A stretch of DNA of 64,000 nucleotides from Gemmatimonadales bacterium (GTDB lineage Bacteria > Gemmatimonadota > Gemmatimonadetes > Gemmatimonadales > GWC2-71-9), in contig JBDIWC010000008.1 in NCBI GenBank assembly GCA_039794085.1, positions 32,001 to 96,000 of the forward strand. Direction: 5' to 3'. A model generated the notes under the pieces. The model saw only the letters and a list, made by a program, of their open reading frames with translations, ran no database searches and was not told the DNA's origin. Position 1 is the stretch's first letter; every line of letters begins with the position of its first letter. Of this stretch, positions 20,864 through 36,170 are shown piece by piece. Position numbers and translations under genes: made by a program.

Positions 20864-21121
20864 CTATTGGGAGAGGCGCTTCGGCTCCCCGGAGGATGCG
20901 GGAGGCTGCTGCGAGGCGGCATCCATTTGCCTGCCCGGGGGAAGGTTTCGTTCCTCTCCCGTGCCGGTCACGGCGTTTTCCACGTCGCTGAAGCTCCTCT
21001 TGAACTCACGGATTCCCTTCCCGAACGACGCCCCGATCTCTGGAAGTCGCTTGGCCCCGAACACGAGCAACACGACCAGCAGGATGATCATGATCTCGCC
21101 GAAACCCAGATTTCCCAACAT
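20864..21121 (-). CDS. tatA: Twin-arginine translocase TatA/TatE
   Basis: LLVFGAKRLPEIGASFGKGIREFK; AGGAGG RBS. Confidence 0.95.
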   Translation of the reverse strand: MLGNLGFGEIMIILLVVLLVFGAKRLPEIGASFGKGIREFKRSFSDVENAVTGTGEERNLPPGRQMDAASQQPPASSGEPKRLSQ

Positions 21122-21411: not shown

Positions 21412-22403
21412 CAGCTCCTCCGTTCGAGAATGTAGCAGAGACTCGCCCGGAGCGTCTCCCGCGCGGGAGAGGGTGGCAGGACGGCCAATTCCGCCTCCGC
21501 CTCTTCCAGGAGGGCCTGGGCGCGGTCGCGTGCGTAGGCCAGCCCGCCGCGGTCGGCGACAATGCCAATCACCGCGCTCACCTGGTCGCCACGGGGATCG
21601 GGATTGGCGAAGAGTTCGTCGACCACCGCGCGCTCGCCCCGGGACAGCCGGGGAAGGACATGGATGAGGGGGAGGGTGATCTTGTGCTCCCGAAGATCCA
21701 GGCCGGCGGGTTTCCCCGTGATGGTCGCATCGGAGGTGAAGTCGAGCAGGTCATCGACGATCTGGAAGGCACGGCCGAGCCGGTCCCCGAAGCGAGCCAT
21801 GGCCTCGCGCCGCCCCGCGGGCGCGCCGAGCGCACCCACCTCACAGGCACCGGAGACGAGGGAGGCCGTCTTCGACCGAATGAGGAGGTTGTAGTCCTCC
21901 TCGGTGAAGGCGAGAGGGTCGACGGCCAGGAGCTGCCGCATCTCCCCCACGGTCATCTCATTGGTCACCCGGGCCAGGACCTGGAGGGGGACAAGGTCGT
22001 CCAGGCGAACCAGTTCAATCACGGCCCGGGAGTAGAGATAGTCTCCCATGATCACCGAGACCTGGTGACTGAAGAGGGAGTTGATCGTGGGCATTCCGCG
22101 ACGAAGCACGGAATGATCCACCGCATCGTCATGGACCAGCGTGGCCAGGTGAATCAGTTCCACCACCGCGGCAAGCCGCACGGCCGTGGCCGGATCGGTT
22201 CCCTCGCTCGCATCCCGTGAGAGGAGCACCAGGGTGGGGCGGAACATCTTGCCCTGCATGCGGAGGAGGTGAGCATTGACTTCCACGATCAACCCGAAAT
22301 CGGCCACGATGAGCTGGGAGAGCCTGTCCCGCACCTCATCGAGACGCGATTCCAGTCCGGCCTGGATGTCACCGAGGGTGACCGGCGAGGTTCCGCTCGT
22401 CAT
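21411..22403 (-). CDS. Polyprenyl (octa/heptaprenyl) diphosphate synthase
   Basis: ATLVHDDAVD...RRG and FQIVDDLLD aspartate-rich motifs. Confidence 0.95.
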   Translation of the reverse strand: MTSGTSPVTLGDIQAGLESRLDEVRDRLSQLIVADFGLIVEVNAHLLRMQGKMFRPTLVLLSRDASEGTDPATAVRLAAVVELIHLATLVHDDAVDHSVLRRGMPTINSLFSHQVSVIMGDYLYSRAVIELVRLDDLVPLQVLARVTNEMTVGEMRQLLAVDPLAFTEEDYNLLIRSKTASLVSGACEVGALGAPAGRREAMARFGDRLGRAFQIVDDLLDFTSDATITGKPAGLDLREHKITLPLIHVLPRLSRGERAVVDELFANPDPRGDQVSAVIGIVADRGGLAYARDRAQALLEEAEAELAVLPPSPARETLRASLCYILERRS

Positions 22404-24748
22404 CGTCCCCCTCCCAGGGCGTGGACCCGGGGCCCCAGATCGAGAAACCGGATGTCCACCGCCAGGGCTCGTTCGTACCAGGGCAACGCCTCCCCGCCGC
22501 GTTCCAGGGCCTCAAGGGACCGCCCCAGCCAATAGATCAGCCCGATCTTCTCGTCATCCGATCCCGGCACGGACTCGATCGCCCGGCGCAGTACCGCCTC
22601 CGCAATGGCGTATCGCCCCTTCTCGTAGAAGGAGATCCCCAAGGCCTCCGAGGCCCGGAGGCGTCCTTCGGGAGAACGGAGAGCCTTCTGAAACTGGGCG
22701 ATCGCCTCATCGAGCAGGCCCATCTCCTTGAAGGCGATTCCGAGGTCGTACTGGGCCTGGAAGTCCTCACTGTCGAGGTTCTCCTCGATTCCTCTCTTGA
22801 ACTGGCTCAAGGTTTCGAGGAAGTCCTTGTCCTCATCGCCAACGGGTTCCTCCGCATCGACCCGCATCCGGGTATCCCGGGCCGGGACCGGATCCATGAT
22901 GAGGGCGCCCAGGTCCACGAAATCGTTTCCGCCCGTCGGCTCGGCCGGTGCCAGGGGCGCCGCGGCCGGAGGAATGGGGCCGGAGGTGTCCGGAGAACGG
23001 GACGGGGAAGGCGCCTGCAGGGTGAGAATGGCTGCCTGGGCCACGGCGTTCCCCGGATCGAGCTCCTCCACGCGCCGATAGACGGCCAACGCGTTCTCCG
23101 CCGCACCGATGCGCAGAAGGGCGTCGGCCAGACCGAGGTAGCTCCGCACCAGGAGAACGGGGTCACCGGAGTGATAGGCCAGCTCCACCCGCTTCTGGAA
23201 TCGGGGGAGGTTGTCGGGTTCGAGAGTAATCAGGTCCCCCGCCACCACCAGCGCCTCCTCCCACCGGGACGCCACCTCGTGCAGCCGGAGCAGGTCTTCC
23301 AGCACCTCGATTCCGCCCGGGTGGTTTCCCCGCTCCAGGAGGGCGGAGGCCTCTCGCCGCAGGGCGACCGGGTCGGATCGATCGAGGGCGGCTTCCACGA
23401 GGTCGGCGGCATCGAGGGACTCGAAGAGCGCCTCGTCGGTCCCGGGAACCGGCTCCCGCTCGACCGATGCCGTCTCCCGTCCCGAAATCTCCGGAGCCTC
23501 CGTCAACTCGAAATCATCACGGCCGGTGTCCGCGGCCCCGTCCCATTCCCCGCCCACCTCGGACCACTCCTCCCCGGAGGGGGGAAGGATCACTTCCACT
23601 CCCCCCAGGTCACCGTCCACTTCCGAGACCCCGGGGAGATCGACATCCAGGGCCTCCGCGGCCAGCTCCACCGCAAGATCAGGCAGGGAGGAATCGGGCG
23701 CCCCCTCAAACTCAAGGAGTGGCTCGGGTTCGACCTGGTCGAGTTCGAGGGAGGGGAGATCCTGCGCATCGTGCGAGGGAGCAAAGTCGTGGTTGGTGAC
23801 GAAATCCAGGGGCGCCGTGTCGACGACCTGTATCTCCTCGGCGGGCACCTCCCACTCGGGTCCCCGGGAGGTGGGGTCCTCCAGGGTCGTGGCATCGGGA
23901 TCCTGGATGATCTCCACCTCATCGCCCGAGCCATCCCACCGCAGATCACGCGAACCATCCAGATCGATTCCGGAATCCTCCGCGGCCCCCTCCCCGGACT
24001 CCACCACCTCTGTCGCCTCATTCTCGGGACCAACCTCCGCCCTCCGCGTCGGTACGATTCCTGGCACCCCCGACCCGGTATCGAGGAACACCAGCCCCGA
24101 TCCCGCCAAACTCGGTGGGATGTCCTGCATTCCCCCGGTTTCGATGGCCTCGGCCCGTTCCCGGGTTCGGCGGGCCCCCCGCACGTCACCCTGGACCTCG
24201 AGATGGGAGGCGAGCTTCTCCAACTGTTCCCTGGCCTCGTCGGTCCGGGAGGCCGCCCGGAGGAGCTCGCTCAGCATCAGTCGAATGTCGGGATTGCCCG
24301 AGAAGGTGTCGGCAAAGGCCTTCACCGACTGGAAGGCATCCTCGAGACGTCCCACCGAGTGCATCCGCTCCACATATTCGAGGAGGTTCCTCTTCGCCTC
24401 CGGAATGACATTCTTGCGGGAATGGAGCTGGGCGAGGCGGAGATAGGTTTCGGTACGACCCGGGTTGACCCGGAGGATCTTGCCACAGAGAGCGATCGCG
24501 TTGTTGTAGAATCCCTGGTCCGCGTAGAGCTCCGCGGCCTGCTCATAACCCCGGAGGGCGGCCGCCGAGTCCCCCGCCTTCATCTCGAGATCGCCCACCT
24601 TGTTGTACAGGCTCGGGTCCACGCTCTCGGACCCGGTGCCGAGTCCCTGGATGGCCCTGTGGTAGACCTCGATGGCTCGACGCCACTCCTCCCGTTGCTC
24701 AAACCGGCGGGCCTGTTCCTTGAGCTTGTCGAGATTCATCCGGGCCAC
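22400..24748 (-). CDS. Multi-TPR protein with acidic linker
   Basis: N- and C-terminal TPR blocks (YDLGIAFKEMGLLDEAIAQFQKA) around an acidic spacer. Confidence 0.88.
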   Translation of the reverse strand: MARMNLDKLKEQARRFEQREEWRRAIEVYHRAIQGLGTGSESVDPSLYNKVGDLEMKAGDSAAALRGYEQAAELYADQGFYNNAIALCGKILRVNPGRTETYLRLAQLHSRKNVIPEAKRNLLEYVERMHSVGRLEDAFQSVKAFADTFSGNPDIRLMLSELLRAASRTDEAREQLEKLASHLEVQGDVRGARRTRERAEAIETGGMQDIPPSLAGSGLVFLDTGSGVPGIVPTRRAEVGPENEATEVVESGEGAAEDSGIDLDGSRDLRWDGSGDEVEIIQDPDATTLEDPTSRGPEWEVPAEEIQVVDTAPLDFVTNHDFAPSHDAQDLPSLELDQVEPEPLLEFEGAPDSSLPDLAVELAAEALDVDLPGVSEVDGDLGGVEVILPPSGEEWSEVGGEWDGAADTGRDDFELTEAPEISGRETASVEREPVPGTDEALFESLDAADLVEAALDRSDPVALRREASALLERGNHPGGIEVLEDLLRLHEVASRWEEALVVAGDLITLEPDNLPRFQKRVELAYHSGDPVLLVRSYLGLADALLRIGAAENALAVYRRVEELDPGNAVAQAAILTLQAPSPSRSPDTSGPIPPAAAPLAPAEPTGGNDFVDLGALIMDPVPARDTRMRVDAEEPVGDEDKDFLETLSQFKRGIEENLDSEDFQAQYDLGIAFKEMGLLDEAIAQFQKALRSPEGRLRASEALGISFYEKGRYAIAEAVLRRAIESVPGSDDEKIGLIYWLGRSLEALERGGEALPWYERALAVDIRFLDLGPRVHALGGGR

Positions 24749-24823
24749 GGGTCAGAGACGAAGGATGTGGTGAACCTGTTGCAACCTCGCAAGATAGATC
24801 CCCTCTCCGGGCCGGGCAAGCAA

Positions 24824-26356
24824 TTACCCCGCCGTCCGGGCCGGATCCAGACGTCCCTCGGCAACCAGGGCCGCCAGCCGCTCCAGATCCACCCCGGGTG
24901 GCCGGTCCACCGTCAGCGGGGCTACACCACCAGGTCCTCGGACAAGGTCGAAGAGCCGGCGCACGCCGCGACCGGGCTGGAGCGGGCGCAGGATCTCCAA
25001 CCCTTGGGCGCCGCAGAGAAACTCGGCCGCCACCACCAGCTGGGCGTTCGCCAGAACTCGGCGGGCCTTGAATGCGGCGGCCATTCCCATGGGCACAAAG
25101 TCCTCCTGGTTGGCATCGGTGGGGATCGAGCCGATGCTGGCCGGATAGGACAAGGTTCTCGATTCGGCCACCAGGGAGGCCGCCGTGATCTGCACCATCA
25201 TGAATCCCGAGGAGAGGCCGGCCGACGAGGTCAGGAAGGCGGGGAGCCCCTGACTCAGATCGGGGTTGACCAGCCGCTCGATGCGCCGCTCACTGATAGT
25301 CTGCAGGGTGGTCAGCGCGATGGTGACGAAGTCCATAGCCTGGGCCACCGGCTGGCCGTGGAAGTTGCCCCCCGACAGCACCTCGGACCCGAACACCAGG
25401 GGATTGTCGGTCGAGGCGTTGAGCTCGACCGACGCCACGCGGCGCGCGAACGTGATCGCATCCCACACGGCACCCAGCACCTGAGGAGTGCACCGGAGGC
25501 TGTAGGCATCCTGGACCCGGGAGTCGCCCTGACGATGGGACTCCCGGATGGGGCTGTCGTGGAGGAGGTCGCGCATCAGGCGGGCGGCGATCCCCTGCCC
25601 CTGGTGGGGGCGGGCCTCATGAATCCGGGGATCGAGCGGGGTCGGGGTCCCTCGCAGCGCCTCCAGGCTCATCGCCGCCGCCCCGATCGCGGAGCGCCAC
25701 AGAACCTCCGCGTCGTGCACCAGGAGGGTGAGGACGGCGGTCTGGGCCTGAGTTCCGTTGATGAAGGCCAGACCCTCCTTGGGGCCGAACGTGAAGGGCT
25801 CCAGCCCGCATTCCTTCAGGACGAGGTGCGATGCGTCAACGGTGCCATCCGGCCGGGCGAGGGTGCCCTCCCCCATCAATGCCAGCGCCAGGTGGCTGAG
25901 AGGTGCCAGATCCCCGCTCGCCCCCACGCTGCCCTGTTCCGGCACGACTGGGATCGCCCCGCTGTTGAGCAGCGCCACCAGCGCTTGCGCCAGCGCCGGG
26001 CGCACGCCACTGGTGGGTCGGAGCAGCACATTGGCGCGGAGGCACATCATGGCCCGTACCACGTCCCGCGGGAGGGGAGTCCCCACGCCCGCCGCGTGAC
26101 TGCGGATCAGGTTGGCCTGCAGCGCGGTCAGGTCGTCCGGACCGATGCGGACATCCGCCAGCTTGCCGAATCCGGTGTTGATGCCGTACATGGTGTCGCC
26201 CCGGGCCACGGCTCGCTCCACGACGGCACGGGTGCCGGCCATGGCGTCGAGGGCCCGGGGGTCGATGTCGATCCGGAGATCCGGATTCCGGGCAATGCGG
26301 GTCAGGTCCTCAATGGACAGCGACAGGCCGGTCAGGCGAAGGGGGGTGTCGGTCAT
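24824..26356 (-). CDS. hutH: Histidine ammonia-lyase
   Basis: YGINTGFG, GASGDLAPL (MIO), QDAYSLRC, GGNFHG. Confidence 0.95.
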   Translation of the reverse strand: MTDTPLRLTGLSLSIEDLTRIARNPDLRIDIDPRALDAMAGTRAVVERAVARGDTMYGINTGFGKLADVRIGPDDLTALQANLIRSHAAGVGTPLPRDVVRAMMCLRANVLLRPTSGVRPALAQALVALLNSGAIPVVPEQGSVGASGDLAPLSHLALALMGEGTLARPDGTVDASHLVLKECGLEPFTFGPKEGLAFINGTQAQTAVLTLLVHDAEVLWRSAIGAAAMSLEALRGTPTPLDPRIHEARPHQGQGIAARLMRDLLHDSPIRESHRQGDSRVQDAYSLRCTPQVLGAVWDAITFARRVASVELNASTDNPLVFGSEVLSGGNFHGQPVAQAMDFVTIALTTLQTISERRIERLVNPDLSQGLPAFLTSSAGLSSGFMMVQITAASLVAESRTLSYPASIGSIPTDANQEDFVPMGMAAAFKARRVLANAQLVVAAEFLCGAQGLEILRPLQPGRGVRRLFDLVRGPGGVAPLTVDRPPGVDLERLAALVAEGRLDPARTAG

Positions 26357-26443
26357 GGGCGGAAAGTGCGGGGCCCCGGGACCGGGGGCAAGGTCGGGGT
26401 CCTCCCCGGAGCGATGGCGCATGTGGCGATGTGTCAGGCGTCG

Positions 26444-29400
26444 CTACCGGACGGAGGTCTGGTTGTAGTCGAACTTGATGTCGGGAAGGTCGATCAGGTG
26501 GATCGAGAAGAAGAAGGAGAAATTGCCGTTGGCGTTCTGCGCGAAATTGAACGCGGCCTGCCAGTCGTGAAGATCCCGCTGGAGCCGGAAGATGTGGCTC
26601 TCGAACTTTCCGTCCGTCGCGTTGTAGTTGGTGTCCCAGGCCACGGCCCAGAACGCGGTGGGGCTGAAGGTGGTGTTGAAACGGATGTTGCTCTTGGTGG
26701 GCTGACGAACCGACAGGGTGTCCCCCTTGAGTGGGGGGCGGCTTCGGTTGATGGTGACGTTGATCGTGGAGGAGAACCCCCGGCCGCTCGGGAACCGCCC
26801 GAAGTCGCGGGCGCTGGTGATGGGCGCCTGGAACGGGGCTCCGGCGTTCGGGCTCATCCCCGGCGGGACCGTGGGGCGGTTGGCGTCGGGGGCATCCCGG
26901 TCCGCGATACCGAACAGGGAGCCGATCCCGCGTAGAGTGCGCCCGGTGAGGGTGAAACTCGCGTTCACGCTCTGGAGGAACGGTTCGAAGCGCGAGCTGT
27001 CGAACCCGGCCACTCCACGCCAGAGGTCGTGTCCCAGAGTGAGGTCAAATCCGGGCAGCAGATCCGAGTCGAACCGGTTGGTGATGAACTGGGTGACCCA
27101 CCCGTTCCGCCCCGGCTTCTTGGCCTGCTCGAAGTCGAACGTGATTCCCGACGTGGAAATGCCGAGGAGCCGGAACTTCCGCTGGGTACGACTCGTGGTA
27201 TCCCCGGGAGCGGGCCGTTCCTTCGCCTCGAAGTTCTGGGACAGGGAGAGCGTGAGGGTCGTGACCGCGGGACTCTCGCGCGTCACCACCTGCCCGGGGT
27301 TCGCGACCGCTTCGGCGAACTCCTGGGACACGGTGGCCGTGGGCGAATGATTGAACGAGAGAGAGGGCGCAATGCTGTGCCGGATCCGCTCAATCGGTCC
27401 AAACCCGGGAAAGAACCCGAAGAAGGTCGGGGCCGCGGCCAGACTGAAGGAGAGCCGCTTCCCCTGCACCAGGTAGGCCCCTCCGGTCCGCTCGTTTCGG
27501 ATGACGAAGGGTTGTCCCGCCAACTTGTTCGCGATCCCGACGGACGGGGTGACCTTCCACGAGCTCCGGAGGAGGAGCGGGAGGTTGATCCCGGTGTCCC
27601 AGTTCAGGGTGGTCGCGAAGGTCCCGGTGGTCACTTGCTGGACGCTGATCGAGTCATCCGGCTCCGGGGTGGAGAGATCGGGGACCTTCCGAGTGACGGT
27701 GCGGGGGCTCCGTTCCTCCCGGTCCGCAATGTTGACCGCGTTCCGCCAATCAAAGGTTCCGATGCGGAGCGGTGTCATGATGTTGATCGTTGTGTTGCGG
27801 GTCGTGGCGCGAAACGTCAGGGAGTCCAGTTCTCCCACCGGGGTCGCCAGGGAGACGATTCCATCCCGCCGTGTCGTCGCATTGCTCAACCGGAACGTGG
27901 GAGACCAGGTCACCGACCCCCCGAGATCGATCGGATTGGGGTTGAGGGACAGTTCCGGAAAGTTGGTCCGCACCTCGCTGTCGTTCGGGCTCTGGCTCCG
28001 GGTGCCCCCGAGGGAGGCCGTCCCCCACCGGAATCGGCGATCGAGATTCATCGAGGAGCGGATGTTCTGGGTGTTGACGATCGGGTCGATGGCGTTGTTG
28101 TTCAGGACTCGGGTGTTGCTCGCGACATCGAGGTTGAGCGTCAAGCGCGTGGCCACCCCGAAGCTCTGCCGGTGGTTCCAGGCGATGCGCGTGTTTGACT
28201 CCCCGCTGCCGTCGATCTGTTTCAGCCGTGACCAGGAAAGGTTTCCCTCCAGAAACCGGTCGAGCCACCGGTACTGCCCCGCGACCTCGATTCGCGTGCT
28301 CCGGTTGGCCAGCCAATCGAAGGTCCCCACAAAATCGAAGTAGTCGCTGGCGGCCCAGTAATACCCCATGTTGGTGACCTGGCGATTGAAGTTCCGGGTG
28401 GGGCGCACGATGTCGTTGAAGCCGAACCGCGGCACCAGAATGCCGGAGCGACGTCCCTGCTTGGTATCCTGGAAGATGAAGGGGAGCCAGAGCACCGGCA
28501 CATCCCGGATGTAGAGCACCGCGGGGCGCGCCACCATCGTGGACTGCGAGACCCATTTCACCTCTTTCGCGGCGAAATGATAGTGCGATTCGGGGAGGTC
28601 GCAGCTGGTGATCTCCTTGGCGGCGGCATACAGGCGGCTCGAGACCGAGTCGACGGCCAGGTTGCCCCGGATGAACCAGTTGGCGCCCTGCTGGTTGAAG
28701 GAGGTGAGGGCGTCGGACAAGACCCCGCGCTCGACACAGGTGTCGTAGCGCACCGTGTCCCCGATGGCCACCTGGTTGTTCTGGAAGAGTCGCGGTCCCC
28801 CGGTGGCGGTGAAGCGGCAGGCCGGGTCGTCGTACTCGATGATCTCCGCCTCCAGGATCGCTCCGCTTCGTTCCGTCATGGCCTGGCCCTGCAGCCGCAG
28901 CAGGCGGGTCCCGGCGTTCACCGACGCCGAATCGGCCATGTAGCGCGTCACCGCGAAGCCGGGCCGGGTAAGGAGACGTTGGAGAATGGAATCCCCGGGT
29001 CCGAAGCTCTTGCTCGGGCCGGTCGGGAGCCCCATGCGCTGGGCCGCGGCGGAATCCCGGGCCACCTGCGCCGCCCGGATGGAGTCCTGGGCGGTCATCG
29101 AATCGGGCACCACCCGGGTGGTGTCCTGTTGTGCTGTGGCGGATCCGGAGGGGACCCCCATCAGGAGCACCAGGGCTCCCACCGCGGCCGCCACCCGCCG
29201 GCGCCGGTGAATCACCATCGCCCCGGCCACCCCGACCTCGTAGAGCAACAGCAGCGGGAGGGTCATGATCAACATGGAGAAGACATCGGGACCCGGAGAG
29301 AAGAAGGCCCCCCCCACGAAGGCGAGCACCATCCAGTAGCGCCGGAACCGGTGGAGAATCACCGGGGTCACCACGCCGAGCGCCGCCAGCGTGATGATGA

Positions 29401-29935
29401 TGAGCGGCAGCTCGAAGGAGAGTCCCATGCCGAGCATGATCCGGATGACGAAGCCGAAGTACTTGTCATACGTGATCATGGTGGTGAACGATCCCGCCTC
29501 GATGCTGAGGAGGACGCTGATGGCCTTGGGTACCACCAGCAGGAACGAGAGCACCGCCCCGGTCAGAAAGAGCAGCAGCCCCGCAAAGAGACTGGGGACG
29601 ATCGCCTTCTTTTCCTTCTCGTAGAGGGCCGGAGAGAGAAACGCCCACACCTGCCAGAGGATGACCGGAGACGCCAGCACCAGGCCGGTGATGAATCCCA
29701 GCTTGAGCACGATCATGACCGGTTCGGTCGGGCTCAGGACGGTCAGTTTCCCGTCGGGAAGGAACGGGGCGATCGGCCCCTTGAGAACGTCGATCAGATG
29801 CAACTGGTCGACGAGAAGGAGGCCCAGGCCAAACCCCGCCACCACGGCCAGCAGCACCCTCAGAATGCGGGTGCGCAACTCCTCGAGGTGGTCGAGGAAC
29901 GGCATCTCACCCTCGACAGCGGGAGGTCGGGACAT
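26444..29935 (-). CDS. tatC: TatC fused in frame to an LptD-like outer-membrane beta-barrel protein
   Basis: N-terminal MPFLDHLEELR, WAFLSPALY, FELP; C-terminal TSCDLPESHYHFAAK, RSGILVP, RDLHDWQA; no stop between the parts. Confidence 0.88.
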   Translation of the reverse strand: MSRPPAVEGEMPFLDHLEELRTRILRVLLAVVAGFGLGLLLVDQLHLIDVLKGPIAPFLPDGKLTVLSPTEPVMIVLKLGFITGLVLASPVILWQVWAFLSPALYEKEKKAIVPSLFAGLLLFLTGAVLSFLLVVPKAISVLLSIEAGSFTTMITYDKYFGFVIRIMLGMGLSFELPLIIITLAALGVVTPVILHRFRRYWMVLAFVGGAFFSPGPDVFSMLIMTLPLLLLYEVGVAGAMVIHRRRRVAAAVGALVLLMGVPSGSATAQQDTTRVVPDSMTAQDSIRAAQVARDSAAAQRMGLPTGPSKSFGPGDSILQRLLTRPGFAVTRYMADSASVNAGTRLLRLQGQAMTERSGAILEAEIIEYDDPACRFTATGGPRLFQNNQVAIGDTVRYDTCVERGVLSDALTSFNQQGANWFIRGNLAVDSVSSRLYAAAKEITSCDLPESHYHFAAKEVKWVSQSTMVARPAVLYIRDVPVLWLPFIFQDTKQGRRSGILVPRFGFNDIVRPTRNFNRQVTNMGYYWAASDYFDFVGTFDWLANRSTRIEVAGQYRWLDRFLEGNLSWSRLKQIDGSGESNTRIAWNHRQSFGVATRLTLNLDVASNTRVLNNNAIDPIVNTQNIRSSMNLDRRFRWGTASLGGTRSQSPNDSEVRTNFPELSLNPNPIDLGGSVTWSPTFRLSNATTRRDGIVSLATPVGELDSLTFRATTRNTTINIMTPLRIGTFDWRNAVNIADREERSPRTVTRKVPDLSTPEPDDSISVQQVTTGTFATTLNWDTGINLPLLLRSSWKVTPSVGIANKLAGQPFVIRNERTGGAYLVQGKRLSFSLAAAPTFFGFFPGFGPIERIRHSIAPSLSFNHSPTATVSQEFAEAVANPGQVVTRESPAVTTLTLSLSQNFEAKERPAPGDTTSRTQRKFRLLGISTSGITFDFEQAKKPGRNGWVTQFITNRFDSDLLPGFDLTLGHDLWRGVAGFDSSRFEPFLQSVNASFTLTGRTLRGIGSLFGIADRDAPDANRPTVPPGMSPNAGAPFQAPITSARDFGRFPSGRGFSSTINVTINRSRPPLKGDTLSVRQPTKSNIRFNTTFSPTAFWAVAWDTNYNATDGKFESHIFRLQRDLHDWQAAFNFAQNANGNFSFFFSIHLIDLPDIKFDYNQTSVR

Positions 29936-29974
29936 GGCAGGCTCAGGCGCGCGGCCGGCCTCGGGCACCGCCGG

Positions 29975-30760
29975 TCAGGGCCGGAGAGCCGAGAGCCGGT
30001 CGCGGGCGAGGTTGGCTTCCGGTGCCCGGGGATAATTGCGAACAACCGTCTGGTAGGCATCGCGGGCGGCCTCCAGGTCCTGCCTCAGTTCGGCGAGTTG
30101 GCCGATCTTGTACCACGCCGTGGGGGCTCGCTCCGAGGACGCATACCGCGTCGTGACCTCGCGGAAGTAATGGGCCGCGGAGTCGGGGTTCTCCACGGCG
30201 AAGGTTTCCCCCAGGGAGAGGAGCGCGAAGGGAACCTGTTCGCTGGTGGGCCAGGCCCGGAGGAAGTCGCGGAAGGCGGCACGGGCCGTCCCGAGGCTCC
30301 CGCGGAGGTGCATGGCCCGGGCGGCCTGGAACATTTCGTCCGCCGACGGGGTGGGGGCCGGGGCCAGACTGTCCCCGAGCAGCGAATCGGGTGTGGCCGG
30401 AGCCTGCAGTTGCTGCCCCCGGGTGTCCAGTTGCACCTTGAGCTCGGACAGGCGCCGCTGGCTCTGGCCGGTGAGCTCCTGGATCTGCAGCAGCTGCTGC
30501 TGGATGTTGAAGAGATCCTCCGCGAGCTCCCCCTTCGAGATGCGCACCGATTCCCGCACCGACCGCAGGGAGTCCATCACCGCCTCCTGGGTCCGGAGGA
30601 TGGCGCCGATGTCAGCCGCATGCGCACTGTCGCGCCGCGCGGCCTCGGTGCGGAGGACGAGAACCTGGGTCTCGACCTTCCGCACCGCGCCGTTGGTGGC
30701 GCACCCGCCCAGCAGCAGGGCGCAGGCGCCACCGACCAGCAACCGACGTCCGCTCATCAC
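29975..30760 (-). CDS. cpoB: Tol-Pal system protein CpoB/YbgF-like lipoprotein
   Basis: Lipobox LGGC, coiled coil, C-terminal TPRs; follows pal. Confidence 0.8.
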   Translation of the reverse strand: MMSGRRLLVGGACALLLGGCATNGAVRKVETQVLVLRTEAARRDSAHAADIGAILRTQEAVMDSLRSVRESVRISKGELAEDLFNIQQQLLQIQELTGQSQRRLSELKVQLDTRGQQLQAPATPDSLLGDSLAPAPTPSADEMFQAARAMHLRGSLGTARAAFRDFLRAWPTSEQVPFALLSLGETFAVENPDSAAHYFREVTTRYASSERAPTAWYKIGQLAELRQDLEAARDAYQTVVRNYPRAPEANLARDRLSALRP

Positions 30761-31317
30761 GGGGTGGGCCGGATGCTTTCCCGCCCGGCGAGGATCTCGA
30801 ACTCCCCGCGACGGTTCATGGCCCAGGCCGATTCGTTCTGCCCCCGGTCGAGGGGCCGCTCCTCGCCAAAGGAGATGATGGTGATCCGGTCCTCGGCGAT
30901 CCCCTTGGCCACGAGGTACCGCTTGGCCGAGGCCGCGCGCCGGTTCCCCAGCGCCAGGTTGTACTCATCCGATCCCCGGTCATCGGCGTGTCCGGCGATC
31001 CGGATCCGCAACTGGGGATAGGTCCGGAGCAGATCGGCCTTCCGGTCCAGCACCGCCTGATCCGCGGGACGAATGTCCGAGCGGTCGTAGTCGAAGTGCA
31101 CCATCGCCGCAAGATCGTTGACCACCCGGGTCCGGAACGCTTCCAGTTCCGCCGCACTGTTGTCCGGGGCCGGGGGGGGCGGCGGCGGGGGGGGCGGCGG
31201 GGGGGGAGGGGGCGGGGGGGGAGGGGCCGGGGCGGGAACCACCTCGGGCTGCTTCTTGCCGCACGCTCCCGCTGTCAGTGCCATCAGGCCGAGCAGCAGT
31301 ATCGTCCGCATCCGCAT
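30757..31317 (-). CDS. pal: Peptidoglycan-associated lipoprotein
   Basis: Lipobox AGAC, polyproline linker, GHADDRGSDEYNLALGNRRA. Confidence 0.95.
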   Translation of the reverse strand: MRMRTILLLGLMALTAGACGKKQPEVVPAPAPPPPPPPPPPPPPPPPPPAPDNSAAELEAFRTRVVNDLAAMVHFDYDRSDIRPADQAVLDRKADLLRTYPQLRIRIAGHADDRGSDEYNLALGNRRAASAKRYLVAKGIAEDRITIISFGEERPLDRGQNESAWAMNRRGEFEILAGRESIRPTP

Positions 31318-31341
31318 TGCAAACTCCTCGTTGAAGTCATC

Positions 31342-32637
31342 CTACCGTGGGCTCAAATATCGCGACCAGGACGGCAGCCGCGCCACTCCGGGTGTCGGGA
31401 TCTGCCGCACCCGAAAAGTATCCAGATCGATCACATGCAACTGTCCCCGACCGGTCCGATCGGACACGAACACCAGATGCCGCCCGTCGGGCGCCCAACT
31501 CGGATCCTCGTTCCGCCCGCTGGACGAGAGCTGCCTCGCCTGCCGCCGGGCGATATCGAAGACCCAGATCTGCGGAGTCCGGGCGGTTTCCCGGTGAAAT
31601 GCGACCGTGGTACCGTCCGGTGACCACTCGGGGGCATTGGAACTCCCCGTCCGTCCGAAATCGAACGGGACGAGCAACTCCTGCTGAGTGCCGTCGCTCG
31701 CCATGGCATAGATCTGCTGCCCCCCGGCACGCGTCGACACGAACCCGATCCGGCGTCCGTCAGGAGAATACGCAGGCGAGAGATTATCCGCAAACGGTCC
31801 CGAGGTGAGGCGCTCGACGCAGCACATCTCACCCACATTGACCCGCACGAGGTTGGTGCCGCGTTCTCCCGACTGGGCAAACACCACGAAGCGACCGTCC
31901 GGGGAAAAAACCGGAGTGATGTTGGTCTGGCTGTCGGTGGTGGGCAGGGTGGCCCGGGACCCCGTGGCCAGGCGCTGCAGCACCACAGACCACCCGGACT
32001 CATGCAGGTGGACATAGGCGAACTGACTCCCGTCGGGCGACCAGGCCGGGCTGAGGGCCGTCTGCCCCCCGGGAGTCATGGGTGTGAGGCCGTACCCATC
32101 GCTGTCGATCCGAAAGATCCGGCCTCCGGAAACGAACAGGATCCGGCTGGCCGCGTACCCGGTGACCCCGGCCCCCCACTGGACGATCTCATCGGCCAGA
32201 CGGTGAAGGCTCAGGCGGCTCTCTCCGGCTCCGGTCACATCGAGGGGTCTGGTGACTTCGACCCGGACCTCCCTCCGTTCCACGTCATGAAGCCGGACGT
32301 TCACCCCGCTCGCGGCCTCCCGCAGTTCCAGGACAAGGATCGCGCCCAGGGTCTGGTAGAGCGCGTAGTTGATGGAATCCACGGCGGGGGCGACGATAGT
32401 GGAGTCCGACCGGAGAGTGATGACCTCGAATCGATCCGAATAGTCCAGGTCCCGGGCAAGAATCGTCCGGAGGGAGTCAAGCCGCGGGATGGTGGGAAGA
32501 ATCACGATGCCCGGACGAGCCCCGGGGCGATATTCGGTACCGAGAATGATCCGGTCCGGGGTCCGGGTCGTGTCCTGCCCGGCCAGGGGACCGGCCAGTC
32601 CGGCCAGGGCCGCCAGCAGGGGAAGGAACCGCCTCAC
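31342..32637 (-). CDS. tolB: TolB beta-propeller protein
   Basis: Repeated PxWSPDG (PD40) motifs; operon context. Confidence 0.92.
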   Translation of the reverse strand: MRRFLPLLAALAGLAGPLAGQDTTRTPDRIILGTEYRPGARPGIVILPTIPRLDSLRTILARDLDYSDRFEVITLRSDSTIVAPAVDSINYALYQTLGAILVLELREAASGVNVRLHDVERREVRVEVTRPLDVTGAGESRLSLHRLADEIVQWGAGVTGYAASRILFVSGGRIFRIDSDGYGLTPMTPGGQTALSPAWSPDGSQFAYVHLHESGWSVVLQRLATGSRATLPTTDSQTNITPVFSPDGRFVVFAQSGERGTNLVRVNVGEMCCVERLTSGPFADNLSPAYSPDGRRIGFVSTRAGGQQIYAMASDGTQQELLVPFDFGRTGSSNAPEWSPDGTTVAFHRETARTPQIWVFDIARRQARQLSSSGRNEDPSWAPDGRHLVFVSDRTGRGQLHVIDLDTFRVRQIPTPGVARLPSWSRYLSPR

Positions 32638-33311
32638 GGTGTTGTCCTTGGCTTGAAGTAGAAGGTGATCGGGAGAGCGTCGGCTTCGAATCCCTCCGGG
32701 AGCGGCCCGAAGGCCCCCGCCAGGGCGGCCGCTTCGACGGCGCCCCGGGCCTCCAAGTCGAAGCTGTAATTCCGGGAGCTCCGGGTCACCTGGATCTCGC
32801 GGACCGTCCCGTCACGCAGAATGGTGAAACTGACGTCGGTTCGAAGAGCCGCATTGCTGACCGGACGGTCCCACCGCCGGAGGATCTGGGTCACGATGTT
32901 CTGGAGATACTCGGGAAAGGGAAACGCGAGTCCCTTCAAGTCCACCGTGGCCACATCGGATCCGGTGCTCGGGGTTTCCCCCGGGAGCGGAGTTGCCGGG
33001 TTGGCCGTGGCGGGGGCGCGCTCCACCGGTTTCGGCGTCGCCTTGGCAGGTGGAGTCGGGGTCACCGGCTTGATTGCTGGCTTGGGGGGAGGGGCAACGC
33101 GCTCCACAGGCCGGGGGACCGCCTCGGCGGCGAGCCGGCGCTGGGTGGTCGGCGCCGGAGCCGCCGTGAGCTTGACGGCGTAGGTCTGCGGCAGAGGTTG
33201 CGACGCGGAAGCCGACCACAGGAGGGCCACCGCGGCCGCGGTGTGGATTCCCGTGGTCCAGAGGAGCCCCGCCATCAGCTGGCTCCGCTCGAGGGTCCCC
33301 TGCCCTGTCAT
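32634..33311 (-). CDS. TolA/TonB-like energy transducer
   Basis: TM with His, Pro-rich linker, C-terminal FTILRDG...SS...FDLEA. Confidence 0.85.
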   Translation of the reverse strand: MTGQGTLERSQLMAGLLWTTGIHTAAAVALLWSASASQPLPQTYAVKLTAAPAPTTQRRLAAEAVPRPVERVAPPPKPAIKPVTPTPPAKATPKPVERAPATANPATPLPGETPSTGSDVATVDLKGLAFPFPEYLQNIVTQILRRWDRPVSNAALRTDVSFTILRDGTVREIQVTRSSRNYSFDLEARGAVEAAALAGAFGPLPEGFEADALPITFYFKPRTTP

Positions 33312-33742
33312 GGCAGCCGCTCATCCTCCGTCACCAGATTCACATCCACCACTCCCGACTCCCGGATGGCAGCCAGCACCCGGACCACCTGCCCGTAGGC
33401 GGCACGCCCGTCGGCCCGGAGATAGACCCCATTGGACTGGCGGGAACGCGCGAGGGCCCCGAAGGTGGAGCGGAAGTCGTTGTAGGAGATCTCGGTGTCG
33501 TCCACGAAGATCGTCCCCCGGCGATCGATGCTGACGGTTACCCCCTCCCGCGGGGAGAGCGGACGCGCCTCGGCCCGAGGCAGCTGCACCTCCACACCGC
33601 CCTGCATGATCGGCGCGGTGATCATGAAGATGATGAGCAGCACGAAAGCCACGTCCACCAGGGACGTCACGTTGATGTCCGCCGAAGGGGTGAGCCCCCG
33701 TCTCCGGCCTCCCCCGAGGTGCCCCTGCCCGACGCCCGCCAT
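33308..33742 (-). CDS. tolR: TolR/ExbD
   Basis: DINVTSLVDVAFVLLIIFMITAP. Confidence 0.92.
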   Translation of the reverse strand: MAGVGQGHLGGGRRRGLTPSADINVTSLVDVAFVLLIIFMITAPIMQGGVEVQLPRAEARPLSPREGVTVSIDRRGTIFVDDTEISYNDFRSTFGALARSRQSNGVYLRADGRAAYGQVVRVLAAIRESGVVDVNLVTEDERLP

Positions 33743-34449
33743 CAGATCAGGCCCTCCCGGGCCATCCATCCGATGAGTTCATTCCCGAAACCCTCCAGCT
33801 CTCCCTCCAGGCGCGAGATCCGGCTCGCGAAATAGTTGTACGCCATCACGGCGGGGATCGCCGCCGCCAGCCCGGCCACGGTGGTCACCAGGGCTTCCGC
33901 CACCCCGGGGGCCACGGCGGCCATGTTGCTCGACCCCCCCGTCGAGATCCCGATGAATGAACGCATCACCCCGAGCACCGTTCCCAGGAGACCGAGCAGG
34001 GGACTGACCGATCCAATGGTGGCCAGCCAGGTGATGTAGTGCGATACATGGTCCCGTTCGGACGCCACCTCCTTGCCGAGCACCATCTTCAGGGCCTCGA
34101 GCTGGCTCTCCGACAGGGTGTGACGGGCCGTGTCCGCTTCGGTCAGCGCTCCGGGACGGAGCTCGGAGTAGAAGGTGATTCCCTCCCGGAAAAGGCGATT
34201 GTAGGGAGAGGGAGGAAGCTTCATGGCCGCCCGGTAGGCGTCATTGAGACGGGGAGACCTCTCCAGTTCCTCGAAGAACCGCGTGGCCTGTCCCCCGAGA
34301 CGCCTCATCTGCCACCATTTCCACCCGATCAAAAACCAGGAGGCGAAGGAGAACACCGCGATCGTGATCAATACGATCCGGGTCTCGGTGTTGGCGGTCA
34401 GAATGAGTTCCGCCGCGGACGACGGGAGCGGGCCTGGCGCCTGCAGCAT
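33742..34449 (-). CDS. tolQ: TolQ/ExbB (MotA family)
   Basis: SPLLGLLGTVLG, VAPGVAEALVTT. Confidence 0.92.
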   Translation of the reverse strand: MLQAPGPLPSSAAELILTANTETRIVLITIAVFSFASWFLIGWKWWQMRRLGGQATRFFEELERSPRLNDAYRAAMKLPPSPYNRLFREGITFYSELRPGALTEADTARHTLSESQLEALKMVLGKEVASERDHVSHYITWLATIGSVSPLLGLLGTVLGVMRSFIGISTGGSSNMAAVAPGVAEALVTTVAGLAAAIPAVMAYNYFASRISRLEGELEGFGNELIGWMAREGLI

Positions 34450-34567
34450 GGGCGGTCCTGGCGAAGGGTCCGGAACAACGACGAGTGCTGCCCGGTAAGA
34501 TAGCATCACCCGGCCGGCATCCGGCACAGGCAACGTTGAACCCGTCCCGATCCACACGGCTCATGCC

Positions 34568-34624: not shown

Positions 34625-35716
34625 TCAGCTGGGCAGCTTGGCGACCTGCCGAGCCAGGGTCTGCGGAGGGATGTCCGGGGAAACGACATGGAGCAGGAGG
34701 AGGGTGGCGGACCGACTCCGGACATGGACCACCTGACCCACCGCCATCAGTTCGTCAATGGTGTCCGCCGCACGAATGCGAGGTCCCGCTTCCCGGCGAA
34801 TCTCGAAAAGGTCTCCCTCGGCCACTCCGGCGTCCCGGCCGATGTCGATGAAGAGCACGTTCTGGAGGTGCTTGAGGACGCGGAGCTCCCGCCCTCCGAT
34901 GACCCGTCCCTCGATGCCATTCTCGACGGGAGCCGCCCGTGACGATCCCGGTCCGGGGAAACGCCCCGCCGGCAGGACCACCTGACCATTCTCGATGGCG
35001 CCGTACATGGCCACCACCTCTGCCACGTACTGATCGTTGTTCGTTCCCGTGACCCGGGCAAGACCGGTGGGAACGACGATGTCCCCGTACCCTCGCTCGG
35101 CGACTTCCAGGCGGGCCACCACCAGGGAATCCCCCGGTGCATAGGTGGCGCCATCCGGAGGGCGAATCCCGACGATGGAGTGAAGCGTGATGGTCCCGCG
35201 ATTCGAAATCGACCGGATCTGCGGCGGGGTGACCGGGCCGAGGAGCCGTCCCAGGGGAAGCCGCTCCCCTTCGGTCAGGAATCCGGAGGAGAAGAACTCA
35301 CCGGGCCGGAGAGGGCGGTATTCATCGTCGATCGCCACCCGAAGCGAGATGTCGGAGGAGGTGGGGCGACGCTGTTGCCAGAAGGGGACCCCGTCAACCG
35401 GGGCCTCTTCGGTCCGGACGGCCTGAACCTCGTCGCCCGGCGCATCCGGTACGGCGGAGGGTTGGTCTCCGCCCGGGACCAGGCGCAGCACTTCGCCGGG
35501 ATAAATCCAGTGCGGATCCTCCACGATATCCGTGTTGAGCCGAAAGATCTGGGGCCAGAGGAAGGGGTCGCCCAGATACCGACCGGCGAGGTCCCACAGG
35601 GTGTCCCCCCGACGCACGGTGTGCGTGGCGGGAATGTCCTGCGCCGCGGCAGGAGTGGCCGCGACCATGGCCACTCCCACTCCCAGCGCGATCAGACTAG
35701 AACGGCAGATCGTCAT
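34625..35716 (-). CDS. LysM domain exported protein, TsaP-like
   Basis: Signal peptide; HTVRRGDTLWDLAGRYLGDPFLWPQIF...PHWIYPG; beta-rich C-terminus. Confidence 0.8.
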   Translation of the reverse strand: MTICRSSLIALGVGVAMVAATPAAAQDIPATHTVRRGDTLWDLAGRYLGDPFLWPQIFRLNTDIVEDPHWIYPGEVLRLVPGGDQPSAVPDAPGDEVQAVRTEEAPVDGVPFWQQRRPTSSDISLRVAIDDEYRPLRPGEFFSSGFLTEGERLPLGRLLGPVTPPQIRSISNRGTITLHSIVGIRPPDGATYAPGDSLVVARLEVAERGYGDIVVPTGLARVTGTNNDQYVAEVVAMYGAIENGQVVLPAGRFPGPGSSRAAPVENGIEGRVIGGRELRVLKHLQNVLFIDIGRDAGVAEGDLFEIRREAGPRIRAADTIDELMAVGQVVHVRSRSATLLLLHVVSPDIPPQTLARQVAKLPS

Positions 35717-36170
35717 CCTCGGCATCCAGTGCCTCCGGGAAATCGTCGAACGACTCGTCCTTCCGGGCGGGGGTTGTCGCCATGCGAGGTGACGAACCCG
35801 CATCACTCCCCCCATCAGCGCCCCCCCGACCGGAGAGAAGGATCAACTCCCGGGCGATGATCTCCGTCGTGTACCGGGTCTGGCCTTCGCGATCCTGCCA
35901 CGACCGGTACTCGATGCTCCCCTCGACGTAGATCTTGTCGCCCTTCTTGCAGTACTTCTCCACGATGTCGGCCAGGCCCGACCCCTTGTTGTTCCAGAAG
36001 ATGATCCGGTGCCACTCGGTTTTTTCCTGGCGTTCACCATTCTGGTTCTTCCATTGCCGGCTGGTGGCCAGCGACAGGTTCGCCACCTTGGAACCTGTTG
36101 AAGTAGTGCGGACTTCGGGATCCGCCCCCAAATTGCCAATAAGGGTGGCTTTGTTCAGACTGCGGCTCAT
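35697..36170 (-). CDS. ssb: Single-stranded DNA-binding protein
   Basis: SLNKATLIGNLGADPE, KTEWHR, C-terminal DDDLPF. Confidence 0.97.
   Translation of the reverse strand: MSRSLNKATLIGNLGADPEVRTTSTGSKVANLSLATSRQWKNQNGERQEKTEWHRIIFWNNKGSGLADIVEKYCKKGDKIYVEGSIEYRSWQDREGQTRYTTEIIARELILLSGRGGADGGSDAGSSPRMATTPARKDESFDDFPEALDAEDDDLPF

Follow-up and report, generated by a model that had tools for sequence, protein, structure and literature searches.

The described protein that appears to come nearest to the subject of this report, a gene of a Gemmatimonadales bacterium in which tatC and lptD are fused, is the cytochrome b-c1 precursor FbcH of Bradyrhizobium japonicum, the subject of Thony-Meyer, James and Hennecke (1991; PMID 1647023). 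In this precursor a polytopic inner-membrane protein is reportedly followed by an internal signal-like sequence, and cleavage frees an exported C-terminal protein; the two products are said to be subunits of one inner-membrane complex. The fused gene analyzed here lies within a 64,000-nucleotide stretch of DNA, called the window (assembly GCA_039794085.1, contig JBDIWC010000008.1, positions 32,001 to 96,000 of the forward strand). TatC is an inner-membrane protein and LptD an outer-membrane protein, and they belong to separate machines. The TatC-LptD gene resembles FbcH in that one frame encodes a polytopic membrane protein, an internal signal and an exported protein. It differs from FbcH in that TatC and LptD serve unrelated machines in two membranes, that one of them is a beta-barrel, and that the join appears to have been gained and lost repeatedly across the phylum. 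Viral polyproteins such as the flavivirus structural region also have internal signals that are cut by host signal peptidase to define the product boundaries, but that case is viral and belongs to the eukaryotic endoplasmic reticulum, whereas TatC-LptD is a bacterial housekeeping gene.

Two other groups of proteins invite comparison. The dual Sec-Tat proteins (actinobacterial Rieske protein, Sco3746 and polyferredoxin in PMC5449189; "Class IV" in PMC13673990) likewise have an internal export signal behind helices inserted by Sec, and an origin from adjacent genes is suggested for them in PMC5449189. Their signals carry a twin-arginine consensus, are weakly hydrophobic, stay uncut and export folded cofactor domains. 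The TatC-LptD linker departs from them in consensus, loop length and hydrophobicity, and the uncut state and cofactor domain are predicted not to apply to it. The 14-helix double TatC of haloarchaea is another natural TatC fusion, but it joins TatC to TatC and lacks F94/E103, whereas TatC-LptD keeps the equivalent residues and has LptD as its partner (PMC13673990). No description of a TatC-LptD fusion was found in the literature searched, a search that most subscription journals and all supplements lie outside. The main text of the 2026 Tat review contains neither "LptD" nor "Gemmatimonad" (PMC13673990).

The fused gene is a single frame of 1163 codons on the reverse strand (29935-26444) with no internal stop. 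The frame could be extended 11 codons upstream to a GTG at 29968, and the start is likely M1 (29935) or M11 (29905). Its parts are as follows.

26444..29935, reverse strand: tatC-lptD fused gene (protein P0001), 1163 amino acids (aa); junction covered by contigs of sequencing runs X1, X5 and X7
29210..29935, reverse strand: TatC moiety, residues 1-242, identified by PF00902, TIGR00945, PDB alignments and a Foldseek match to 4b4a
29195..29209, reverse strand: basic run H243-R247, read both as the positive-inside tail of TatC after its sixth transmembrane helix (TM6) and as n-region for the internal signal peptide
29153..29194, reverse strand: h-region V248-V261, from Kyte-Doolittle hydropathy
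29132..29152, reverse strand: c-region P262-A268, ending A-T-A, with a predicted signal peptidase I cut at A268/Q269
26444..29131, reverse strand: predicted mature LptD (LptD_2 type), 895 aa from Q269, with spacer, periplasmic domain and barrel
29216..29218, reverse strand: in-frame ATG (M240) read from the sequence, a candidate internal start that is unconserved

An earlier note on this DNA had described a frame of about 1160 codons, a complete TatC followed by about 900 aa of LptD-like barrel protein, and a linker with a basic run, an AxA before Q and an in-frame ATG. All of this was borne out: the frame is stop-free, a whole-model PF00902 match is followed by PF19838 over an 895-aa product, and the linker elements fall where they were placed (H243-A268 at 29209-29132, Q269 beginning at 29131, the ATG of M240 at 29218).

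For comparison with relatives, 100 regions were fetched from the listed matches. Together with the window they gave 100 loci with TatC, namely 67 fused, 24 split and 9 without an adjacent lptD (one of the last being at a contig end); locus L053 (genome G010), whose TatC is cut by a contig end, was left out. The TatC half of the window's protein matches the entire 208-position PF00902 model at residues 15-227 (E 4e-60) and scores 195.9 bits with TIGR00945 against a cut-off of 132.7; the E. coli-type TatC model NF008174 stays under its cut-off (135 versus 432 bits). Foldseek aligns this half with A. aeolicus TatC (4b4a) at a TM-score of 0.78 by target length and a root-mean-square deviation (rmsd) of 3.7. 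F99 and E108, which correspond to E. coli F94 and E103 (numbering by way of a 9dzz alignment), are invariant in every fused locus, and the E. coli residues are the twin-arginine binding residues according to PMC13673990. The fused gene is the only TatC match in the genome, which is 94.7% complete. Its TatC half has no free cytoplasmic C-terminus in the frame, running instead into a seventh hydrophobic segment and LptD.

The LptD half matches PF19838 (LptD_2) with E 1e-35 and 123.8 bits (cut-off 22.5), again as the sole such match of the genome, and proteobacterial LptD equivalogs fall far under their cut-offs. The 15 top Foldseek matches are all LptD or LptDE entries (E 4e-22 to 7e-17), with a loose fit (TM 0.39-0.47 by target length, rmsd 14-18, strands uncounted), and the periplasmic-domain profile PF03968 reaches only E 0.16. 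The structural model points to an LptD fold, with a beta-rich periplasmic domain and a large beta-barrel behind a low-confidence spacer; insertion of lipopolysaccharide (LPS) is its putative activity. The AlphaFold model of the whole chain has a mean predicted local distance difference test (pLDDT) score of 77 and a predicted template-modeling score (pTM) of 0.53, and it is uninformative for the linker, since pLDDT is below 50 at residues 251-294. Three cysteines of the LptD periplasmic domain (373, 400 and 445) are kept in 98, 98 and 100 of 100 alignment rows, and the barrel has none. An LptE (PF04390, E 3e-10) is also encoded in the genome.

The linker lies after residue 242, and is thus internal rather than at a free N-terminus, yet it has the layout of a signal peptide throughout the fused loci. 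Net charge after TM6 is +1 to +6 in all 67 linkers, and the best 10-residue Kyte-Doolittle mean of the h-region is 2.34-3.41 in all of them. When the first Q past the h-region is simply located, without any alignment, A or G stands at -1 in 64 of the 67, and the motif [AL]x[AG]Q is found in 59 (36 of 40 genus labels). Shuffling yields 7.4 +/- 2.5 such loci (maximum 16 in 1000 shuffles), and [AL]x[AG] precedes later Qs in only 33 of 580 cases. The +1 codon is CAG in 49 loci and CAA in 18, so that both glutamine codons are in use. In a 100-row alignment (A2), modal identity at -3/-2/-1/+1 is 0.81/0.39/0.94/1.00, compared with 0.41 for the c-region and 0.38 just downstream. The predicted cut site falls 15-21 residues from the start of the h-region in 66 of 67 loci, and the spacer behind it is highly variable among fused relatives in both length and sequence.

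The glutamine is informative because ordinary signal peptides of the same genome also expose one: Q is at +1 in 87 of the 159 N-terminal signal peptides that a crude rule picked out, against a background of 3.5%. A second gene with an internal signal was not found in this genome, where the one match among 2510 open reading frames (ORFs) is the fused gene itself. As a side observation, the preference for Q resembles the Bacteroidetes rule and holds genome-wide, with TolB (31342-32637) and a LysM protein (34625-35815) as examples in the window. That rule has been published for signal peptidase I substrates of Bacteroidetes in PMC5837995 and PMC10653852, whose available parts do not mention Gemmatimonadota.

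The gene probably encodes a polyprotein, a TatC-LptD chain joined by the former export signal of LptD and cut by signal peptidase I at A268/Q269 into inner-membrane TatC and free outer-membrane LptD. The earlier note had proposed such a cut; the proposal is well supported by comparison, through the cut-site motif, the +1 glutamine and the split and TatC-less relatives. By the usual workings of the Sec pathway, the ribosome would be targeted through the first TatC helix by the signal recognition particle (SRP), and Sec/YidC would insert TM1-6 co-translationally. The arginine run would stay in the cytoplasm, making the linker a seventh helix of N-in/C-out orientation, while the following 895 residues or so would pass into the periplasm. 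LepB, which is present in the genome, would then cut at A268/Q269, and the exposed glutamine could cyclize; a type I glutaminyl cyclase (PF05096) is also present. LptD would proceed to BAM and LptE for normal barrel assembly, while TatC would either retain the signal helix or have it trimmed.

The distribution of the fusion was surveyed in a draw of 300 Gemmatimonadota genomes, 124 of them from the family of the source genome and 122 of these with a TatC match. A locus was counted as fused when its open frame had at least about 700 residues or was open past the junction at a contig end, unfetched loci being judged by frame length alone. On this definition 111 of the 122 are fused; the others comprise 4 split-adjacent pairs (G131, G076, G012, G165), 6 genomes that have a free tatC at another site, and 1 locus cut by a contig end. 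Two separate genes in all relatives, which the earlier note had named as fatal to its proposal, is not what this family shows. Among the other Gemmatimonadota with a TatC match, 4 of 172 are fused (G035, G243, G113, G196). The best 120 of 1500 protein matches all carry PF00902 plus PF19838, are 1148-1179 aa long and are 52-91% identical; the organism-named members among them are Gemmatimonadales and are labeled TatC only, so that the LptD of this family is hidden in annotation. A weak search elsewhere found 31 long TatC proteins among 1684 candidates, 3 of them TatC-LptD_2. Two single long TatC proteins, P0126 and P0143, carry PF01121 or PF00270; they are singletons and could be assembly joins.

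Split relatives indicate how such a join could arise. They share with the fused loci the gene order tolB-pal-cpoB-tatC-lptD (often with hutH) and a basic TatC tail, and their lptD start is followed by an ordinary signal peptide that mostly ends before Q. In 22 of 24 split loci an in-frame ATG, GTG or TTG is found between -5 and +19 relative to the tatC stop, and in 13 of these stop and start overlap as NTGA; one small change would therefore fuse the genes with the signal peptide already in place. In the fusions of the source genome's own family the TatC tail and the n-region of the signal form one basic run and the start codon is gone, where the split pair has a stop overlapping or adjoining the lptD start. 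The trees lead us to infer an ancestral state with tatC and lptD adjacent and with overlapping stop and start. The fusion may have originated by loss of the tatC stop in such a pair, and the loss would be tolerated because the signal peptide still works internally.

Trees of TatC plus LptD show fused forms at four positions, namely in the own family, in genus g29, and as G113 and G196. A single origin of all fusions was rejected in approximately unbiased (AU) tests (p 2e-54 and 2e-46; in a second set 6e-8 and 7e-43), which were run on quick LG+G4 trees of 25 and 32 selected rows, the groups being defined only once the tree had been seen. Judged from these trees, there have been at least four gains of the fusion and at least four reversions, the latter read from split own-family members (G003, G131, G076+G012, G165) whose branches lie within fused groups. 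In the g29 and G196 fusions the signal is still preceded by a long TatC tail, and in the own family and G113 the TatC tail and n-region are merged. The G196 linker looks like a recent read-through of an intergenic region; in this linker (L032) a translated short direct repeat lies upstream of a TTG kept at the old lptD start.

Loss of the TatC half is also seen. Six own-family genomes have a free paralogue as their sole TatC match, and in these cpoB is followed directly by lptD, whose N-terminal signal ends in A or G and then Q. Five of the six could be placed in the tree, at three places among fused lineages, and it appears that the TatC half was lost in three lineages that possess a second tatC, so that their LptD now starts with an ordinary signal peptide. 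One genome, G074, has both the fused gene and a free tatC. The free paralogues form an own-family clade (L035, L036, L038, L039, L041 and L043, in G090, G188, G014, G242, G009 and G074) that groups with TatC of the family f2 type (FastTree support 0.74-0.83). At the position of E. coli D211, 7 of the 9 TatC rows without adjacent lptD have L or M. Besides its fused gene, G035 has another tatC, free-standing and with a tatA-like gene immediately after it (L044), and in L134 (G079) the N-terminal part of tatC has a frame break, an error or a pseudogene, with the junction still fused.

The earlier note had suggested that the fusion fixes 1:1 synthesis of the two proteins. This rationale is unsupported, because the split pair is already tightly coupled by overlap or near-adjacency and the join comes and goes. 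A near-neutral, tolerated join fits the repeated gain and loss equally well, and a ratchet, in which re-splitting requires a new start codon, would account for persistence as well.

Several points weigh against the signal-peptidase reading or limit its support. The n-, h- and c-regions were called by rules of our own rather than by a predictor of the SignalP type, and the first linker rule preferred Q at +1, which makes the alignment-free test of the first Q the fairer one. The invariance of the Q269 column (100 of 100 rows of A2) is inflated, since aligners favor lining up Q in gappy regions. Eight of the 67 loci miss the strict motif, including G002 of the window's own genus with W-T before Q. 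The best 19-residue hydropathy of the linker is 1.29-2.29 (median 1.77), so it could be an uncut anchor in some members, and a conserved cut site does not imply complete cutting. The loci come from listed matches rather than a random sample, and kin are non-independent. Monophyly of the own family, supported at 1.00 in FastTree (whose concatenated tree omits 13 of 100 rows without more than 600 aa of LptD), has a support of 98 in the SH-like approximate likelihood ratio test (SH-aLRT) in two trees and below 80 in two concatenated trees. Finally, the cyclization step is unsupported family-wide, because a strong PF05096 match occurs in only 3 of 41 related genomes, with 2 more weak; type I glutaminyl cyclase is thus not general in these 41 genomes, the other cyclase class lying outside the search.

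The possibility that the fusion is an assembly or sequencing artefact, with a stop codon lost, arises because the source genome is a metagenome assembly and because the G113 and G196 fusions rest on single genomes. It is practically negligible for the window. Four of ten listed runs were compared, one of which (X8) has no coverage of the junction. A contig of X1, a run that may be the source sample, covers 27138-29269 and shows 0 differences; X5 and X7, from another study and a relative about 94% identical, cover the junction and have in-frame indels only at 27286-27303, summing to 12 bases. The stop or frameshift at the junction that the earlier note had considered damaging is absent from the contigs of all three runs, the junction being indel-free in each, and all 120 of the listed homologues are fused, so the artefact is refuted here. 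It is also very unlikely that translation of LptD as a normal pre-protein begins internally, at M240 or a GTG close by, with the long frame incidental. An ATG (M240) and a GTG (V241) do stand just ahead of the arginine run in the source genome, 47 of the 67 fused loci have an in-frame ATG, GTG or TTG in the interval, and the recent G196 fusion has a Shine-Dalgarno (SD)-like word upstream of its retained TTG. However, 20 of the 67, G008, G074 and G087 among them, have no such codon from TM6 E+4 to the h-region (14.6 +/- 3.2 for random TatC windows), which rules out an internal start as the general mechanism, and 22 have none before the last basic residue. The methionine that the earlier note had offered as an alternative start is unconserved: ATG occurs in only 13 loci, scattered from +4 to +19. 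SD-like words occur in 9 loci, mostly as codons of the invariant TM6 glutamate; GTG makes up 0.55 of valine codons versus 0.54 in the gene body, and synonymous conservation does not rise (0.63 versus 0.61). TatC made from the upstream start would, moreover, still carry the whole of LptD and need cutting. An internal start may serve as a side route in single lineages, including that of the source genome.

If the chain were instead wholly or partly uncut, the linker would be a seventh membrane helix tethering LptD to TatC across the periplasm. The predominance of the fused state in the own family, the low-confidence spacer that follows the linker and the linker's hydropathy would all suit a tether, but it gives no reason why -3, -1 and +1 are kept while neighboring positions drift. 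The spacer is also highly variable in length and sequence, and the re-splits (at least four) and three losses of the TatC half imply that a tether is dispensable; we consider it very unlikely. A related proposal is very unlikely too, namely that a share of chains stays uncut or is cut slowly, so that a covalently tethered, envelope-spanning TatC-LptD would co-locate folded-protein export with LPS insertion and signal peptidase would set the balance. It is highly improbable that the chain is cut in or close to the linker by a different enzyme (rhomboid, RseP or a periplasmic protease) or that it cuts itself; the enzyme cannot be named from sequence and 8 of 67 loci lack the strict motif, but the small residues at -1 and -3, the spacing from the h-region and the +1 glutamine match both the N-terminal signals of the genome and the signals of split LptD. 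We regard it as extremely unlikely that the arginine run is a twin-arginine signal by which LptD passes over from Sec to Tat, in the manner of the dual Sec-Tat proteins. The even number of helices before the linker would agree with it, as would the RR found in 59 of 67 linkers and the basic residue that 24 of 67 have in the c-region. Beta-barrels, however, are exported unfolded through Sec. The motif RRx[FL][LIVMF], or the strict motif, occurs in 0 of 67 linkers and a loose pattern in 6, so the Tat motif is rejected. The earlier note's idea that the arginines engage Tat also fails to account for split TatC (RR in 20 of 24) and lone TatC (9 of 9), where the run is present as TatC's own tail. 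Internal Tat signals need about 8 residues from the previous helix to RR and low hydrophobicity (PMC5449189), whereas in 57 of 59 linkers the last RR is at most 5 residues away from the first basic residue, and the hydrophobicity of the h-region is strong; the internal signals of dual Sec-Tat proteins stay uncleaved (PMC13673990).

The remaining features of the locus concern its neighbors and the Tat system of the genome.

29975..34557, reverse strand: tol-pal-type cluster ending tolB, pal, cpoB, upstream of the fused gene
24824..26422, reverse strand: hutH (histidine ammonia-lyase; TIGR01225 above cut-off), the usual downstream neighbor
20864..21112, reverse strand: tatA/B-family gene, the sole PF02416 match of the genome, about 5.3 kb downstream

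The tolQ/tolR-like ORFs of the upstream cluster are named by sequence and position only. With one TatA/B-family match in the genome, a minimal TatAC system is suggested; 11 twin-arginine-like N-termini were counted by a crude rule. TatA and TatB have a topology opposite to one with basic residues before the helix. The linker, in which the basic residues precede the helix, was rejected as a TatB-like helix by this reasoning only. Between 26300 and 30200 there are no promoter-like sites and 4 terminator-like sites (2.2 +/- 1.6 expected). Very long antisense ORFs occur at 22421-26935 and 28577-31021 on the forward strand and are most likely shadows of GC-rich coding strands. At 22400-24748 on the reverse strand lies a gene for a 782-aa tetratricopeptide repeat (TPR) protein with an acidic middle, whose C-terminal part resembles TPR models of the SgmX/MamA type, below their cut-offs.

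If the TatC-LptD chain really is cut by signal peptidase I, the gene is an example of a bacterial polyprotein occurring in nature, with two products that end up in separate membranes as parts of separate machines. Signal peptidase I would then be handling, as a matter of routine, a signal that sits behind six membrane helices, and an outer-membrane barrel of 900 residues would be able to withstand export that is probably co-translational; outer-membrane proteins are usually said to be exported post-translationally. The fused, re-split and TatC-deleted variants would provide a ready allelic series for both points. The repeated gains and losses suggest tolerance of the join rather than a new function, and the biology after cutting is probably ordinary.

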